From the NCBI RefSeq assembly GCF_001677475.2, contig NZ_CP015229.1: a stretch of DNA of 64,000 nt. One strand, 5' to 3'. The notes under the pieces are model-generated. The model was not told where the DNA came from and did no database searches. It worked only from the letters and a program-made list of their open reading frames with translations. Both the position numbers and the translations under genes were made by a program. Positions 4,020-54,252 of this stretch are shown in pieces. Each line of letters begins with the position of its first letter. Positions within the stretch are counted from its first letter, which is position 1. This DNA comes from Escherichia coli (lineage in GTDB: Bacteria > Pseudomonadota > Gammaproteobacteria > Enterobacterales > Enterobacteriaceae).

Positions 4020-4032
4020 TGTAATGAATGAT

Positions 4033-4063
4033 AAAAATGGCGCAAATACAGCGCCATTTTTAT
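4033..4063 (+). terminator. Rho-independent terminator downstream of yagU
   Basis: Hairpin AAAATGGCGC-aaataca-GCGCCATTTT followed by TTTTTAT. Confidence 0.6.
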
Positions 4064-4207
4064 AGGTTAAAAACATTGCTTTTTATATTCTGATGCAGCT
4101 AGTCAGTGAGCATATCGCGCCACTTCAGGATGATGTAGATCCGAAGAACGCTACAGAAGAGAGGCATTGTTGCTGGCAAATAGAAGAAGTTTCGGGTTTT
4201 GTTGCCC

Positions 4208-4243
4208 CTAAAAACGAAGCCCCGCTATTACAGTAGGCGGGGC
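4208..4243 (-). terminator. Rho-independent terminator downstream of ykgJ
   Basis: Stem GCCCCGC/GCGGGGC (4219-4225 / 4237-4243); on the minus strand the hairpin is followed by TTCGTTTTTAG. Confidence 0.55.
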
Positions 4244-48708: not shown

Positions 48709-50245
48709 AATAGTCATTAAACCGAATACCTATTTTGATTCTGTCTCGCTGATGTCTATCTCCACGCGTGCAAATAAACTCGACGGCGTCGAGCAGGCAT
48801 TTGTGGCGATGGCGACCGAAATGAACAAAGGCGTACTGAAGAATTTAGGGCTGCTGACGCCGGAGCTGGAGCAGGCGAAAAACGGCGACCTGATGATTGT
48901 CATCAATGGTAAATCGGGTGCGGACAACGAGCAGTTGCTGGTGGAGATTGAAGAACTGTTCAACACCAAAGCGCAAAGCGGCTCGCACGAGGCGCGTTAC
49001 GCCACTATTGCCAGCGCCAAAAAGCATATCCCGGAAAGTAACCTGGCAGTGATTTCGGTCAACGGCCTGTTTGCCGCTCGTGAAGCGCGTCAGGCGCTGC
49101 AAAATGATCTCAACGTGATGCTGTTTTCCGATAACGTCTCGGTTGAAGATGAACTGGCTCTCAAGCAGCTGGCCCACGAAAAAGGGCTGCTGATGATGGG
49201 GCCAGACTGCGGCACGGCGATCATCAACGGCGCGGCGCTCTGCTTTGGTAACGCCGTGCGTCGCGGCAACATCGGTATTGTTGGCGCATCCGGCACCGGT
49301 AGCCAGGAACTGAGCGTCCGCATTCATGAATTTGGCGGCGGCGTTTCGCAACTGATTGGCACCGGTGGGCGCGACCTGAGCGAGAAAATCGGCGGCCTGA
49401 TGATGCTCGACGCCATCGGGATGCTGGAAAACGATCCGCAAACTGAAATCATTGTGCTTATCTCCAAACCGCCTGCGCCTGCGGTGGCCCGCAAAGTGCT
49501 GGAACGCGCACGTGCCTGCCGCAAGCCGGTGGTGGTCTGCTTCCTCGGTCGTGGCGAAACGCCAGTGGATGAGCAGGGGCTACAGTTTGCTCGCGGCAGC
49601 AAAGAAGCGGCGCTGAAAGCGGTAATGCTCTCCGGCGTGAAACAGGAACATCTCGAGCTGCATACGCTGAACCAGCCGTTGATTGCTGACGTGCGCGCTC
49701 GCCTGCAACCGCAGCAGAAATACATTCGTGGCCTGTTCTGCGGCGGTACGCTGTGTGACGAAACCATGTTCGCGGTGATGGAAAAACACGGCGATGTCTA
49801 CAGCAACATCCAGCCCGATCCTGAATTCCGCCTGAAAGATATCAACCGCAGCGTCAAACATACCTTCCTCGACTTTGGCGATGACGACTTCACCAACGGT
49901 AAGCCGCATCCAATGATTGACCCCACCAACCGTATCAGCCGCTTGATCGAAGAGGCGCGCGATCCAGAAGTGGCGGTGATCGTGATGGATTTTGTGCTCG
50001 GATTTGGATCGCATGAAGATCCGGTTGGTTCCACCATTGAAGCGATCAAAGAAGCGAAAGCGATCGCCGCTGCCGAAGGACGCGAGTTGATCATTCTCGC
50101 CTATGTGCTGGGTACCGATCTTGATACGCCATCGTTAGAACAACAAAGCCAGATGCTGCTTGATGCCGGAGTGATTCTGGCGAGCAGCAGCACCAATACC
50201 GGATTGCTGGCGCGTGAATTTATCTGCAAAGGGGAGGAAGCCTGA
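48698..50245 (+). CDS. yahF: FdrA-like protein YahF (CoA-binding / succinyl-CoA synthetase-like fold)
   Basis: ORF track 515 aa; synteny; overlaps the yahE stop. Confidence 0.8.
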   Translation: MSVKIVIKPNTYFDSVSLMSISTRANKLDGVEQAFVAMATEMNKGVLKNLGLLTPELEQAKNGDLMIVINGKSGADNEQLLVEIEELFNTKAQSGSHEARYATIASAKKHIPESNLAVISVNGLFAAREARQALQNDLNVMLFSDNVSVEDELALKQLAHEKGLLMMGPDCGTAIINGAALCFGNAVRRGNIGIVGASGTGSQELSVRIHEFGGGVSQLIGTGGRDLSEKIGGLMMLDAIGMLENDPQTEIIVLISKPPAPAVARKVLERARACRKPVVVCFLGRGETPVDEQGLQFARGSKEAALKAVMLSGVKQEHLELHTLNQPLIADVRARLQPQQKYIRGLFCGGTLCDETMFAVMEKHGDVYSNIQPDPEFRLKDINRSVKHTFLDFGDDDFTNGKPHPMIDPTNRISRLIEEARDPEVAVIVMDFVLGFGSHEDPVGSTIEAIKEAKAIAAAEGRELIILAYVLGTDLDTPSLEQQSQMLLDAGVILASSSTNTGLLAREFICKGEEA

Positions 50246-51663
50246 TGAGCCAGTCACTGTTTAGCCAACCATTGAACGTTATTAACGTCGGCATCGCCAT
50301 GTTTAGCGATGACCTGAAAAAGCAGCATGTAGAAGTGACTCAACTCGACTGGACGCCGCCGGGGCAGGGCAATATGCAGGTGGTGCAGGCGCTGGACAAC
50401 ATTGCCGATTCGCCGCTGGCAGACAAAATCGCCGCCGCTAACCAGCAGGCGCTGGAACGCATTATCCAGTCGCATCCGGTGCTGATTGGTTTTGATCAGG
50501 CGATTAACGTGGTGCCGGGCATGACGCCGAAAACCATTCTTCACGCCGGGCCGCCAGTGACCTGGGAAAAAATGTGCGGCGCGATGAAAGGCGCGGTCAC
50601 CGGGGCGCTGGTGTTCGAAGGGCTGGCGAAAGACCTCGACGAGGCGGCTGAACTGGCGGCTTCCGGGGAGATCACCTTCTCGCCGTGCCACGAACACGAC
50701 TGTGTGGGATCGATGGCGGGTGTTACCTCGGCCTCGATGTTTATGCACATCGTAAAAAACAAAACCTACGGCAACATCGCTTATACCAACATGAGCGAGC
50801 AGATGGCGAAGATTTTGCGTATGGGCGCCAACGACCAGAGCGTGATCGACCGCCTCAACTGGATGCGCGATGTGCAGGGACCAATGCTGCGCGACGCGAT
50901 GAAAATTATCGGTGAGATCGATCTGCGCTTAATGCTGGCGCAGGCGCTGCATATGGGCGATGAGTGTCATAACCGCAATAACGCCGGGACGACGCTGCTG
51001 ATTCAGGCGCTGACGCCGGGGATTATTCAGGCGGGCTATTCCGTCGAGCAACAGCGCGAAGTGTTTGAGTTTGTCGCCAGCAGCGACTACTTCTCCGGCC
51101 CGACGTGGATGGCGATGTGTAAAGCGGCGATGGATGCGGCGCACGGCATCGAATACAGCACCGTGGTCACCACGATGGCGCGTAACGGCGTCGAGTTCGG
51201 TCTGCGGGTCAGCGGATTACCGGGGCAATGGTTTACCGGTCCGGCGCAGCAGGTGATCGGCCCGATGTTTGCCGGTTATAAGCCGGAAGATTCGGGGCTG
51301 GATATCGGCGACAGCGCCATCACCGAAACCTACGGCATTGGCGGATTTGCTATGGCGACCGCGCCCGCTATCGTCGCGCTGGTGGGCGGCACGGTGGAAG
51401 AGGCTATCGATTTCTCCCGTCAGATGCGTGAAATCACTCTCGGCGAAAACCCTAACGTGACCATTCCGCTGCTCGGTTTTATGGGTGTGCCGACGGCAAT
51501 CGACATCACCCGCGTGGGTAGCAGTGGCATTCTGCCGGTGATCAACACCGCCATCGCTCATAAAGATGCGGGCATCGGCATGATTGGCGCGGGCATTGTG
51601 CATCCACCATTCGCCTGCTTCGAAAAAGCCATTCTTGGCTGGTGCGAACGTTACGGCATCTGA
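50245..51663 (+). CDS. yahG: YahG (DUF1116, YlbE-like)
   Basis: ORF track 472 aa; start overlaps the yahF stop. Confidence 0.8.
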   Translation: MSQSLFSQPLNVINVGIAMFSDDLKKQHVEVTQLDWTPPGQGNMQVVQALDNIADSPLADKIAAANQQALERIIQSHPVLIGFDQAINVVPGMTPKTILHAGPPVTWEKMCGAMKGAVTGALVFEGLAKDLDEAAELAASGEITFSPCHEHDCVGSMAGVTSASMFMHIVKNKTYGNIAYTNMSEQMAKILRMGANDQSVIDRLNWMRDVQGPMLRDAMKIIGEIDLRLMLAQALHMGDECHNRNNAGTTLLIQALTPGIIQAGYSVEQQREVFEFVASSDYFSGPTWMAMCKAAMDAAHGIEYSTVVTTMARNGVEFGLRVSGLPGQWFTGPAQQVIGPMFAGYKPEDSGLDIGDSAITETYGIGGFAMATAPAIVALVGGTVEEAIDFSRQMREITLGENPNVTIPLLGFMGVPTAIDITRVGSSGILPVINTAIAHKDAGIGMIGAGIVHPPFACFEKAILGWCERYGI

Positions 51664-51685
51664 CATGCAAAGTGCGCGTTGTCTC

Positions 51686-51860
51686 TGCCGGATGCGGCGT
51701 GAACGCCTTATCCGGCCTACGAGTGGCGCAAGAACCTGTAGGCCTGATAAGCGTAGCGCATCAGGCATTTTTCACGATTGCCGGATGCGGCGTGAACGCC
51801 TTATCCGGTCTACGAATGGCACAAGAATCTGTAGGCCTGATAAGCGTAGCGCATCAGGCA
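51686..51860. repeat. REP/BIME cluster: two tandem copies of an ~80-bp unit (copies differ at a few positions), each holding a pair of inverted REP sequences
   Basis: GATGCGGCGTGAACGCCTTATCCGG(C/T)CTACGA(G/A)TGGC(G/A)CAAGAA(C/T)CTGTAGGCCTGATAAGCGTAGCGCATCAGGCA occurs twice in direct orientation. Confidence 0.85.
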
Positions 51861-51909
51861 ATTTGGCGTTGGTCATAACCCCATCACCCTCTGTAGCGGA
51901 CATAACAAT

Positions 51910-52860
51910 ATGAAAGAACTTGTGGTCGTTGCCATTGGTGGCAACAGCATTATCAAAGATAACGCCAGCCAGTCGATTGAGCATCAGGCGGAGGCGGTGA
52001 AGGCCGTCGCCGATACGGTGCTGGAAATGCTGGCTTCCGATTACGACATTGTGCTGACCCACGGCAACGGACCGCAGGTCGGTTTGGATTTACGCCGCGC
52101 GGAGATTGCCCACGAGCGCGAAGGGTTGCCCTTAACGCCGCTGGCGAACTGTGTGGCGGATACGCAAGGTGGCATTGGCTATCTGATCCAACAGGCGCTG
52201 AACAACCGGCTGGCACGCCACGGCGAGAAAAAAGCCGTCACCGTGGTGACTCAGGTGGAAGTGGATAAAAACGATCCGGGTTTTGCTCATCCCACCAAGC
52301 CCATCGGCGCATTCTTCAGTGAATGCCAGCGTGACGAATTACAAAAGGCAAACCCTGAATGGCGTTTTGTTGAAGATGCCGGACGGGGCTATCGCCGCGT
52401 GGTCGCCTCGCCGGAACCGAAACGTATTGTCGAAGCACCGGCCATTGAGGCATTGATCCAACAAGGCTTTGTGGTCATCGGCGCGGGCGGTGGCGGCATT
52501 CCGGTGGTGCGCAGTGAAGCGGGGGATTACCAAAGCGTGGACGCGGTTATCGACAAAGATCTCTCTACCGCGCTACTGGCCCGCGAAATTCACGCCGACA
52601 TTCTGGTGATCACCACTGGCGTGGAAAAAGTGTGCATTCACTTTGGCAAACCCCAGCAGCAGGCGCTCGATCGGGTGGATATTGCCACCATGACCCGCTA
52701 TATGCAGGAAGGGCATTTCCCGCCCGGCAGCATGTTGCCAAAAATCATTGCCAGCCTGACGTTCCTGGAACAGGGCGGCAAAGAAGTGATTATCACCTCG
52801 CCGGAATGCCTGCCTGCGGCGCTGCGCGGTGAAACGGGCACCCATATCATTAAAACGTAA
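51910..52860 (+). CDS. yahI: Carbamate kinase-like protein YahI
   Basis: ORF track 316 aa MKELVVVAIGGNSI... (amino-acid kinase family N-terminus). Confidence 0.85.
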   Translation: MKELVVVAIGGNSIIKDNASQSIEHQAEAVKAVADTVLEMLASDYDIVLTHGNGPQVGLDLRRAEIAHEREGLPLTPLANCVADTQGGIGYLIQQALNNRLARHGEKKAVTVVTQVEVDKNDPGFAHPTKPIGAFFSECQRDELQKANPEWRFVEDAGRGYRRVVASPEPKRIVEAPAIEALIQQGFVVIGAGGGGIPVVRSEAGDYQSVDAVIDKDLSTALLAREIHADILVITTGVEKVCIHFGKPQQQALDRVDIATMTRYMQEGHFPPGSMLPKIIASLTFLEQGGKEVIITSPECLPAALRGETGTHIIKT

Positions 52861-52869
52861 GGACGTAAG

Positions 52870-54252
52870 ATGAAAGAAAGCAATAGCCGCCGTGAGTTTC
52901 TGAGCCAGAGCGGTAAGATGGTCACCGCCGCCGCGCTGTTTGGTACCTCTGTGCCGCTCGCCCATGCGGCAGTCTCTGGCACAACCCACTGCGAGGCAAA
53001 TAACACCATGAAAATCACTGACCCGCACTACTATCTCGACAACGTGCTGCTGGAAACCGGTTTTGACTACGAAAACGGTGTGGCGGTGCAGACCCGCACG
53101 ACACGCCAGACCGTGGAGATTCAGGACGGCAAAATTGTTGCCCTGCGCGAGAATAAGCAGCATCCGGACGCCACGCTGCCGCACTATGACGCTGGCGGTA
53201 AGCTGATGCTGCCCACCACCCGCGACATGCATATTCATCTCGACAAAACCTTCTACGGCGGGCCGTGGCGCTCGCTCAATCGTCCGGCAGGCACCACCAT
53301 CCAGGACATGATCACGCTTGAGCAGAAAATGCTGCCGGAGTTGCAACCGTACACTCAGGAGCGGGCGGAAAAACTGATCGATTTATTGCAGTCGAAAGGC
53401 ACCACCATTGCCCGTAGCCACTGCAATATCGAACCGGTTTCCGGCCTGAAAAATCTGCATAACTTACAGGCGGTGCTGGCACGACGTCAGGCGGGCTTCG
53501 AGTGTGAAATTGTCGCCTTCCCGCAGCACGGTTTACTGCTGTCGAAATCGGAGCCCTTAATGCGTGAAGCGATGCAGGCAGGGGCGCATTACGTCGGCGG
53601 GCTGGACCCGACCAGTGTCGATGGCGCGATGGAAAAATCCCTCGACACCATGTTCCAGATTGCGCTGGACTACGACAAAGGCGTCGATATTCACCTGCAC
53701 GAAACCACTCCGGCGGGCGTGGCAGCCATCAATTATATGGTTGAAACGGTAGAGAAAACGCCGCAGCTTAAAGGCAAGCTGACCATCAGCCACGCCTTTG
53801 CGCTGGCTACGCTCAACGAGCAACAGGTCGTTGAGCTGGCGCACCGGATGGCGGCGCAGCAAATTTCTATCGCCTCGACGGTGCCGATTGGCACGTTGCA
53901 TATGCCGCTCAAACAGCTACACGACAAAGGTGTAAAAGTGATGACCGGCACCGACAGCGTTATCGACCACTGGTCGCCTTACGGCCTGGGCGACATGCTG
54001 GAAAAAGCCAATCTGTATGCGCAGCTCTATATTCGCCCTAACGAACAGAATTTGTCCCGCTCGCTGTTTTTAGCCACTGGTGATGTGTTGCCGCTCAACG
54101 AAAAGGGCGAGCGTGTCTGGCCTAAAGCGCAGGATGACGCCAGCTTTGTGCTGGTGGACGCCTCCTGTTCTGCCGAGGCAGTGGCGCGTATCTCGCCGAG
54201 AGCCGCAACGTTCCATAAAGGGCAACTGGTGTGGGGGAGTGTGGCAGGTTGA
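52870..54252 (+). CDS. yahJ: Amidohydrolase-family deaminase YahJ with Tat-type signal
   Basis: ORF track 460 aa; SRREFLSQSGKMVTAAALFGTSVPLAHA. Confidence 0.8.
   Translation: MKESNSRREFLSQSGKMVTAAALFGTSVPLAHAAVSGTTHCEANNTMKITDPHYYLDNVLLETGFDYENGVAVQTRTTRQTVEIQDGKIVALRENKQHPDATLPHYDAGGKLMLPTTRDMHIHLDKTFYGGPWRSLNRPAGTTIQDMITLEQKMLPELQPYTQERAEKLIDLLQSKGTTIARSHCNIEPVSGLKNLHNLQAVLARRQAGFECEIVAFPQHGLLLSKSEPLMREAMQAGAHYVGGLDPTSVDGAMEKSLDTMFQIALDYDKGVDIHLHETTPAGVAAINYMVETVEKTPQLKGKLTISHAFALATLNEQQVVELAHRMAAQQISIASTVPIGTLHMPLKQLHDKGVKVMTGTDSVIDHWSPYGLGDMLEKANLYAQLYIRPNEQNLSRSLFLATGDVLPLNEKGERVWPKAQDDASFVLVDASCSAEAVARISPRAATFHKGQLVWGSVAG

Follow-up and report, generated by a model that had tools for sequence, protein, structure and literature searches.

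The spacer between yahG and yahI in a 64,000-nt stretch of Escherichia coli DNA, hereafter the window, contains two tandem units of paired, inverted REPs that fit the description of an atypical BIME. Comparison of loci shows that this element is orthologous to REP23 of E. coli K-12 and that it is one allele of a copy-number-variable array. We consider it probable, though well short of certain, that the array would act as an intercistronic set of hairpins that limits read-through into yahI-yahJ and protects the yahEFG mRNA. In what follows, we demonstrate the sequence identity, anatomy, orthology, and polymorphism of the element, and we infer its mode of action.

Anatomy and class of the repeat

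The spacer is 246 bp long, lying between the end of the yahG ORF at 51663 and the start of the yahI ORF at 51910 in the list of open reading frames. Tandem Repeats Finder reported a repeat at 51686-51864 with a period of 93 (1.9 copies, 94% matches, no indels, score 323), and a repeat search delimited two 86-nt copies, 51686-51771 and 51779-51864, that share 94% identity. The copies differ at five positions (51716, 51723, 51728, 51735, and 51768), four of which are in linkers. The difference at 51716, where unit 1 has C and unit 2 has T, changes the basal G-C pair of the second Y stem to G-U in the plus-strand RNA. Each unit is laid out as T, a 30-nt Y hairpin, CTAC, a 17-nt linker, GTAG, a 25-nt Z hairpin, A, and an 11-nt linker, and the REPs run across the spacer in the order Y, inverted Z, Y, inverted Z (Table 1). 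All four match their consensus with zero or one mismatch, and no further copies occur in the 64-kb window; 100 dinucleotide-preserving shuffles of the window yielded no match to the Y or Z consensus.

The description of this locus in the initial annotation as two tandem units with paired inverted REPs is borne out by the 93-bp period, the 94% identity, and the five differences in 86 nt. The unit length of ~80 bp given there is correct for the Y-linker-Z core (51687-51766, 80 nt) and not for the repeat period, which is 93 bp. The flanks of the repeat, which appear unique, are partly BIME sequence, and the whole BIME extends over about 51668-51876. To that extent, the repeat does fill the spacer as had been claimed, the last ~37 nt being a separate yahI leader. 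This leader contains 10 C versus 3-4 G per 25 nt. All Escherichia alleles keep it, even the one that lacks the BIME, and it can be recognized in other genera. Within the array, the variable part among units and strains is the head-to-head linker. The first Z1 REP is directly followed by A and TTTTT (51767-51772); this T5 run in the inter-unit linker is specific to the window lineage, and the E. coli alleles examined have TTTGTCAC.

Table 1. Positions of the repeat components, genes, and predicted features in and around the yahG-yahI spacer
Feature	Position	Strand	Basis
yahG, upstream gene, AllG/YlbE family	50245-51663	+	Pfam PF06545 AllG, E = 4.5e-89; RefSeq orthologue annotation
78-codon ORF through the repeats, in the K-12 YahH frame	51642-51878	+	ORF list; 'hypothetical protein' in strain 104
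Left BIME flanking motif, CAAAGTGCGCGTTGTCTC	51668-51685	+	Alignment A1 with IMG/VR locus L094; sole close copy in window
Y REP 1; hairpin 51687-51716; GTAG on the minus strand (CTAC 51717-51720 on the plus strand)	51687-51720	-	0 mismatches
Head-to-head linker, unit 1, 17 nt, GAGTGGCGCAAGAACCT, no IHF core	51721-51737		Sequence; core scan
Z1 (short Z) REP 1; GTAG 51738-51741, hairpin 51742-51766	51738-51766	+	0 mismatches
IS621 natural target core, exact, ATCAGGCCTAC	51738-51748	-	Within Z1 REP 1
Rfam RF02564 naRNA4 match	51741-51810	-	66.9 bits versus gathering score 59.5; only such match in window
Tail-to-tail linker between units, 11 nt, TTTTTCACGAT	51768-51778		Sequence
Y REP 2	51780-51813	-	1 mismatch: C to T, 51809/51810 region, CCGGTCTAC
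Head-to-head linker, unit 2, 17 nt, GAATGGCACAAGAATCT	51814-51830		Sequence
Z1 (short Z) REP 2	51831-51859	+	0 mismatches
IS621 natural target core, exact, ATCAGGCCTAC	51831-51841	-	Within Z1 REP 2
Right BIME flanking motif, ATTTGGCGTTGGTCAT	51861-51876	+	Alignment A1; single copy in window
yahI leader, C-rich, TCATAACCCCATCACCCTCTGTAGCGGACATAACAAT, outside the repeat	51873-51909	+	Allele comparison; base composition
yahI, downstream gene, carbamate kinase family	51910-52860	+	Pfam AA_kinase; RefSeq annotation of homologous loci
yahJ	52870-54252	+	Pfam amidohydrolase; starts 9 nt past yahI

REPs are imperfect palindromes of 30-40 nt that have GTAG at the foot and conform to a Y, Z1, or Z2 consensus (PMC3333891). 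In the same classification, BIME-1 elements pair Y with Z1 in a single copy and have a long L linker that often holds an IHF site, BIME-2 elements pair Y with Z2 in tandem copies with short linkers, and atypical BIMEs are multi-copy chimeras of the two (PMC3333891). The window element has the generic attributes of REPs and BIMEs, namely a consensus match with a GTAG foot, an extragenic site, and REPs that alternate in orientation with linkers between them. With BIME-1 (RIP/RIB elements), it shares Y, the short Z1, and homologous outer flanking motifs, whereas BIME-1 elements are single copies with a 35-36-nt linker that carries an IHF core and the window element is a tandem array with 17-nt linkers and no core. 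BIME-2 elements, such as the one at sucB-sucC, resemble it in their tandem, copy-number-variable arrangement and short linkers but contain the long Z2 in place of the short Z1. Taken as (Y, 17-nt linker, inverted Z1, 11-nt linker) x 2 flanked by BIME motifs, the yahG-yahI element fits the atypical class, in which Y and Z1, short linkers, tandem copies, and BIME-1-like flanks are combined.

This assignment depends on the type of Z. The Z in the window is the 29-nt short form, and Z2 is a 36-37-nt form. A long Z, GCCTGATGCGACGCT.GCGCGTCTTATCAGGCCTAC, is labeled Z2 in Table 1 of PMC2817692 and is the Z found both at the sucB-sucC BIME-2 and at REP325, an array composed of Y and Z2 (PMC4550694). 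For BIME-1 comparators, we scanned IMG/VR for Y and Z heads spaced 26-42 nt apart and obtained three independent Y-long-linker-Z loci, which have 35-36-nt linkers and a short Z identical to that of the window. The linkers of all three hold AATTCAA-N4-TTG, one mismatch from the IHF core. Because all three of these BIME-1-type loci carry the short Z, we assign the short Z as Z1. Both flanks of the window element align with the flanks of one unrelated BIME-1 locus (L094, alignment A1), and we take the left flanking motif to be the A-type and the right one to be the B-type of the original BIME nomenclature. We rejected a typing as BIME-2, in which the short Z is taken as Z2, on the basis of the long Z at REP325 and sucB-sucC, the label in PMC2817692, and the three BIME-1-type loci. 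An IHF site had also been suggested for the repeat. No match to the core WATCAANNNNTTR was found between 51600 and 51960, whether exact or with one mismatch, and the linkers are 17 nt long versus 35-36 nt in the BIME-1 comparators, so this suggestion finds no support at yahG-yahI.

Orthology with REP23 and copy-number variation

The name REP23 is in use for the K-12 locus (PMC11551758, PMC4765031), and the window element shares with it the locus itself, the flanking genes, Y plus short-Z units of 92-93 bp, the right junction, and the yahI leader. K-12 differs in having four units, a 12-nt left flank that reflects a 10-bp deletion, and a TTTGT inter-unit linker, where the window has two units, a 22-nt flank, and the T5 run. 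E. albertii, ST131, and strain 104 share the 22-nt left flank of the window. The K-12 yahG gene is 96.6% identical to that of the window. Among 5,426 complete E. coli genomes, the nearest reaches only about 96-97% identity to the window, which thus comes from a somewhat divergent Escherichia lineage.

Spacer lengths across strains were obtained as the length of the hit when the joined 1.5-kb flanks, with the spacer removed, were used as the query, and the number of units was read from representative sequences. The sample comprised 58 evenly spaced rows of the ranked complete E. coli genomes, in which clones are over-represented, so the fractions that follow are indicative only. A spacer of 94-95 bp without any unit occurs in 8 of the 58 genomes (~14%). 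One unit is present in 26 genomes (45%), with spacers of 142-143 bp in 17 and of 152-153 bp in 9, the two sizes differing by a 10-bp deletion in the left flank. Two units (246 bp) and three units (329 bp) were each found in 2 genomes, four units (420-421 bp) in 15, including K-12 derivatives, five units (514-515 bp) in 4, including O157:H7, and six units (608 bp) in 1. The cross-strain comparison of copy number that the initial annotation had proposed thus returns a range of 0-6 units in 58 E. coli genomes. Constraint on the precise number of units is evidently not strong, given that about 14% of these genomes have no BIME and 45% have only one unit.

E. coli strains 104 and 2020N21-246-1 carry the same two-unit allele as the window, unit-2-specific substitutions included, which means that the duplication either predates the split of these lineages or has been moved by recombination. 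The latter is indicated by the 0-unit allele of those E. coli strains whose flanks are closest (96.6%). The term 'duplicated' is therefore apt insofar as there are two tandem units but not in the sense of a recent strain-specific event, since the locus shows a 0-6 series and an allele common to strains 104 and 2020N21-246-1. The two-unit state is a rare, minor allele, and copy-number polymorphism of this kind is known.

REPs had also been proposed as targets for some IS families. IS621, a member of the IS110 family, has an 11-nt natural target core (PMC11208160), and the window contains exactly two exact cores, each within a Z1 REP. No inserted IS was found in the spacer among the 58 sampled genomes, whose chromosomal spacers are all ≤608 bp, so the proposal is upheld by the target sites and not by insertions. 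Extra sequence in the spacer was seen in the copy-number sample only in a plasmid row (H97).

Beyond E. coli, Y/Z1 units are present at the same position in E. whittamii and E. albertii; in the latter, a sloppy duplication of 162 bp takes in the final ~47 bp of yahG. In the BIME-free E. coli allele, a palindrome of another sequence, CCTTCTCCC-TTTT-GGGGAGAAGG, folds at -17.6 kcal/mol. Kluyvera and Klebsiella spallanzanii have repeats of the CCCTCTCCC...GGGAGAGGG / GGGTGAGGG type (-52 kcal/mol), and Citrobacter amalonaticus and Raoultella have simple GC hairpins of about -20 kcal/mol. Hairpins that are unrelated in sequence and range from -17.6 to -52.2 kcal/mol thus stand right after yahG in BIME-free E. 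coli, C. amalonaticus, Raoultella, and Kluyvera, and a yahI leader of the form ...CATCACCYTCTG.A.CGGA... is common to these genera and alleles. In E. whittamii, TTACTCTCATAACC is retained after the BIME's own TCATAACC, suggesting that the BIME replaced an older hairpin at yahG-yahI.

Proposed role and competing explanations

The gene arrangement suggests how the array might be transcribed. The yahE/yahF and yahF/yahG pairs overlap and the yahI-yahJ gap is 9 nt, leaving the BIME spacer as the sole sizeable gap in the cluster; an operon yahDEFGIJ has been proposed for EHEC (PMC4765031). A crude consensus scan, which could miss a yahI promoter, found no sigma-70-like site on the plus strand of the spacer. 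Because the genes are tightly packed and no promoter-like site was seen in the spacer, transcripts from yahEFG would be expected to read into the array, where they would fold into four stable hairpins. The local plus-strand RNA hairpins have predicted energies of -21.3 (Y1), -12.9 (Z1), -19.6 (Y2), and -12.9 kcal/mol (second Z1), and the Y1 fold has a z of -4.7. Minimum-free-energy folds of the whole spacer are only modestly better than shuffles (z about -2.3), and the long-range pairings are unstable, so the proposed mechanism is built on the local hairpins. The first REP stem starts 23 nt past the yahG stop codon in the window and 13 nt past it in K-12-type alleles; Liang, Rudd and Deutscher reportedly found in 2015 that translation of an upstream gene is depressed when a REP lies within about 15 nt of its stop codon.

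In the mechanism that we favor, these hairpins would stop part of the transcription before it reaches yahI-yahJ, partly via Rho, and would block 3'-to-5' exonucleases so that the yahEFG mRNA is protected. Expression would then be higher upstream than downstream, and the number of units would help to set the ratio. In the window lineage, the U5 run may also assist in stopping: the first Z1 hairpin is followed by A-UUUUU, in place of the UUUGU of the E. coli alleles examined, and this could add weak intrinsic termination. A consensus scan for intrinsic terminators on the plus strand of the spacer found none, the scan being blind to the Z1 hairpin plus U5 owing to the internal loop in the stem. 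At the DNA level, the array would serve as a substrate for unequal recombination or slippage and possibly for processing by RAYT/TnpA(REP).

The suggested insulation of yahI-yahJ from yahEFG by such an array would fit current experimental models for REP325, the naRNA1-6 array between yjdM and yjdN of K-12. The function of REP325 has been studied best among such arrays, and the Rfam model that matches the window derives from it. REP325 is a partly Rho-dependent terminator, whose deletion raises expression of the downstream gene about 8-10-fold, and it also stabilizes the upstream mRNA and gives a ladder of hairpin-ended transcripts (bioRxiv 10.64898/2026.03.23.713779). The same study reports a higher upstream/downstream expression ratio genome-wide for tandem gene pairs that contain REPs and notes that a few REPs followed by U-tracts act as Rho-independent terminators; it also finds the variance to be large, the effects to depend strongly on context, and REPs to have no general influence on the half-life of mRNAs (bioRxiv 10.64898/2026.03.23.713779). 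Like the window element, REP325 consists of tandem Y/Z REP pairs between co-oriented genes. It differs in having six units of 100 bp, the long Z2, and head linkers of 17 nt that are C-rich on the sense strand, and the window array is inverted relative to it with respect to transcription. The sense-strand linkers in the window are not C-rich, the 37-nt yahI leader alone being so, and Rho loading may therefore be weaker here.

Among the alternatives, the one to which we give most weight, while still thinking it unlikely, is that the array is a selfish or neutral repeat that RAYT/TnpA(REP), slippage, or unequal crossing-over would have seeded and resized and that is merely tolerated in a non-essential gap, with no local function. 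It would account for the 0-6 copies in E. coli, the single-nucleotide indels, the variable linkers, and a duplication in E. albertii that carries the 3' end of yahG with it, and both BIME copy-number variation and TnpA(REP)-mediated recombination have been described (PMC3333891). Against it, every short-spacer lineage examined keeps a strong hairpin at this position, formed from unrelated sequences, and the REP stems have diverged far less than the linkers among units and strains. That unrelated hairpins recur at this site in other genera supports a role as attenuator and stabilizer. The two readings are not exclusive, and a neutral or selfish origin would be compatible with a modest regulatory effect. 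A DNA-level role, in which the array mainly serves as a strong site for DNA gyrase or as a topological barrier that separates the two blocks of genes, appears improbable. Gyrase cleavage sites are over-represented in tandem Y/Z2 BIMEs, preferentially in Y REPs and independently of transcription (PMC6379681), and two Y REPs are arrayed in tandem here; the published enrichment, however, concerns a subset of BIME-2, whereas the window element contains Z1 rather than Z2, and the names yahG, yahH, and yahI are absent from those supplementary files of PMC6379681 that were searched, which may list sites by coordinate. We find it harder still to credit that the array encodes an RNA of the naRNA4 type that bridges REP cruciforms with HU and thereby condenses the chromosome, a model described for naRNA4 and HU in PMC4550694. 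The window does match Rfam RF02564 above the gathering score, over a span that runs from the Z1 of unit 1 across the tail linker into the Y of unit 2. However, the strand that matches is antisense to both yahG and yahI, and thus to the sole evident transcription, whereas the REP325 naRNAs are sense to yjdM-yjdN, the orientation that the model describes; on the plus strand, the model scores 50.7 bits, below threshold. The second hairpin requires a 7-nt deletion relative to the model because the window has Z1 and not Z2, and the only promoter-like site nearby on the minus strand (51976 to 51949) scores 9 of 12, in a region with fewer such matches than shuffles. Moreover, the recent work on REP325 found no effect on the nucleoid from either REP325 or naRNA4 and detected neither a stable ternary complex nor Hi-C contacts between REPs (bioRxiv 10.64898/2026.03.23.713779).

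The remaining alternatives involve translation of the repeats. An ORF, listed as yahH or as 'hypothetical protein', is annotated within the repeats in K-12 and many RefSeq genomes, and the initial annotation was silent on it. The K-12 REP23 is overlapped by the dubious ORF yahH (b0322), which EcoCyc-based work describes as 'filled with REP23 sites' (PMC11551758). A yahH-like protein-coding gene, with the 78-aa repeat peptide as a functional product, would agree with the presence of an ORF in the K-12 YahH frame in the window, with its annotation in strain 104 and K-12, and with the ribosome footprints on the EHEC orthologue X002/yahH (PMC4765031). Nevertheless, we regard such a gene as highly improbable. 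The composition of the unit leaves two of its three sense frames free of stops, the peptide has no Pfam match, and the annotated starts vary between genomes. Annotation lacks the ORF in the 0-unit genome and in both 1-unit genomes that were inspected closely, although another 1-unit genome, H74, lists yahH. Neither frame nor extent is conserved among strains: single-base indels shift the frame in K-12, O157:H7, and ST131 units (also noted in PMC4765031), and the 92-nt and 130-nt unit alleles shift it as well. The footprint reads themselves are likely to be ambiguous on repeated, highly structured RNA. On these grounds, we judge the ORF to be a by-product of repeat composition that should not be taken as a gene. 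An elaboration of the attenuator model, in which the unit number (0-6) is a heritable rheostat of the yahEFG:yahIJ ratio and ribosomes that enter the YahH frame at GTG 51642, where it overlaps the end of yahG, melt the hairpins and relieve Rho-dependent attenuation, is in our estimation a long shot; if it were true, the yahH ORF would be a translational switch for read-through and not a protein gene.

Significance for REP annotation and function

The yahG-yahI element is already known and catalogued as REP23, and it is an ordinary one, so that its importance beyond annotation is slight. For annotation, the Rfam naRNA4 match at this locus is best read as a REP pair seen on the antisense strand, and IHF binding is not to be assumed for every BIME. 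For REP function more generally, the natural series of 0-6 units, together with the BIME-free hairpin allele, offers a test bed for the terminator-plus-stabilizer model of REP.

Alleles of the yahG-yahI spacer within Escherichia

The yahG-yahI spacer of E. coli also occurs without the BIME, as a 95-bp allele in strain CFSAN061771 that is found in ≈14% of the E. coli sampled (58 complete genomes). In place of the array, this allele holds the palindrome CCTTCTCCC-TTTT-GGGGAGAAGG, which is unrelated to the BIME and similar to repeats of the CCCTCTCCC/GGGAGAGGG type in the spacers of Kluyvera and Klebsiella. The strains whose flanking sequences lie closest to those of the window carry the BIME-free allele and not the BIME.

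In three separate regions, the identity of the window to 5,426 complete E. coli genomes peaks at only about 96-97%, and none of the GTDB species representatives matches it exactly. On these identities, the source of the window seems to be a divergent Escherichia lineage. Besides the RF02564 (naRNA4) match in the BIME, the only above-threshold Rfam match within the 64 kb is RF02111 (IS009), which is full length for the model and scores 193.5 bits against a gathering score of 117.

In Escherichia albertii NBRC 107761, BIME unit 2 lies within a 162-bp duplication that also includes the 22-nt left flank and the final ≈47 bp of yahG. This shows that the E. albertii BIME grew by imprecise tandem duplication rather than by unit-exact slippage.

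The spacer in other genera

Two Pseudocitrobacter-labelled genomes, P. faecalis DSM 27453 and a metagenome-assembled Pseudocitrobacter sp. (locus L013), encode a YahI 98% identical to that of the window, and their spacer contains Escherichia-type Y, Z2, and Z1 REPs. This combination suggests that Escherichia was the donor in a horizontal transfer, or that the assemblies are contaminated or mis-binned.

Most representatives of Citrobacter, Enterobacter, Buttiauxella, Serratia, and Providencia carry, between their homologues of yahG and yahI, an additional ORF that encodes ≈516-520 aa and matches no Pfam family (the two tabulated loci and about 50 others). This ORF is absent from that position in Escherichia, Kluyvera, Raoultella, and some Klebsiella. 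An E. coli plasmid, NZ_CP160126.1, carries a copy of an fdrA/yahG/yahI-like cluster with about 86% identity to the window, in which roughly 1.7 kb of additional sequence separates the yahG-like from the yahI-like gene, similar to the Citrobacter/Enterobacter arrangement.

Features of the window, of retrieved yahG-yahI loci (L numbers), and of a plasmid found with joined yahG/yahI flanks (H97)
Feature	Coordinates	Strand	Detail
RF02111 (IS009)	4025-4223	+	
C-rich yahI leader	51873-51909		TCATAACCCCATCACCCTCTGTAGCGGACATAACAAT; conserved in all Escherichia alleles
Weak sigma-70-like site	51976 to 51949	-	TCGACT-16-GATAAT, 9 of 12; inside yahI start, directed leftwards into BIME
BIME-free spacer	L005:1501-1595		E. 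coli CFSAN061771
BIME with duplication	L015:2186-2500		E. albertii NBRC 107761
Pseudocitrobacter-labelled locus	L016:2289-2500		P. faecalis DSM 27453
Extra ORF	L029:924-2474		Citrobacter youngae
Extra ORF	L078:862-2424		Providencia rettgeri
fdrA/yahG/yahI-like cluster	NZ_CP160126.1 93569-97695		H97

The yahI leader, a candidate antisense promoter, and REP names

The yahI leader is still recognizable across genera, even though the sequence upstream of it has completely turned over. Within the leader there could be a regulatory site, the ribosome-binding region, or a patch for Rho loading. The weak sigma-70-like site is the only candidate that could yield an antisense, naRNA4-like strand; sigma-70-like sites around it are fewer than in shuffles.

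The Z REPs beside the RAYT gene of K-12 (yafM) are named z2 in two reports (PMC3333891, PMC2817692), and the same REPs are named z1 in a figure legend of another (PMC3479197). Published Z1/Z2 labels need to be checked against sequence.
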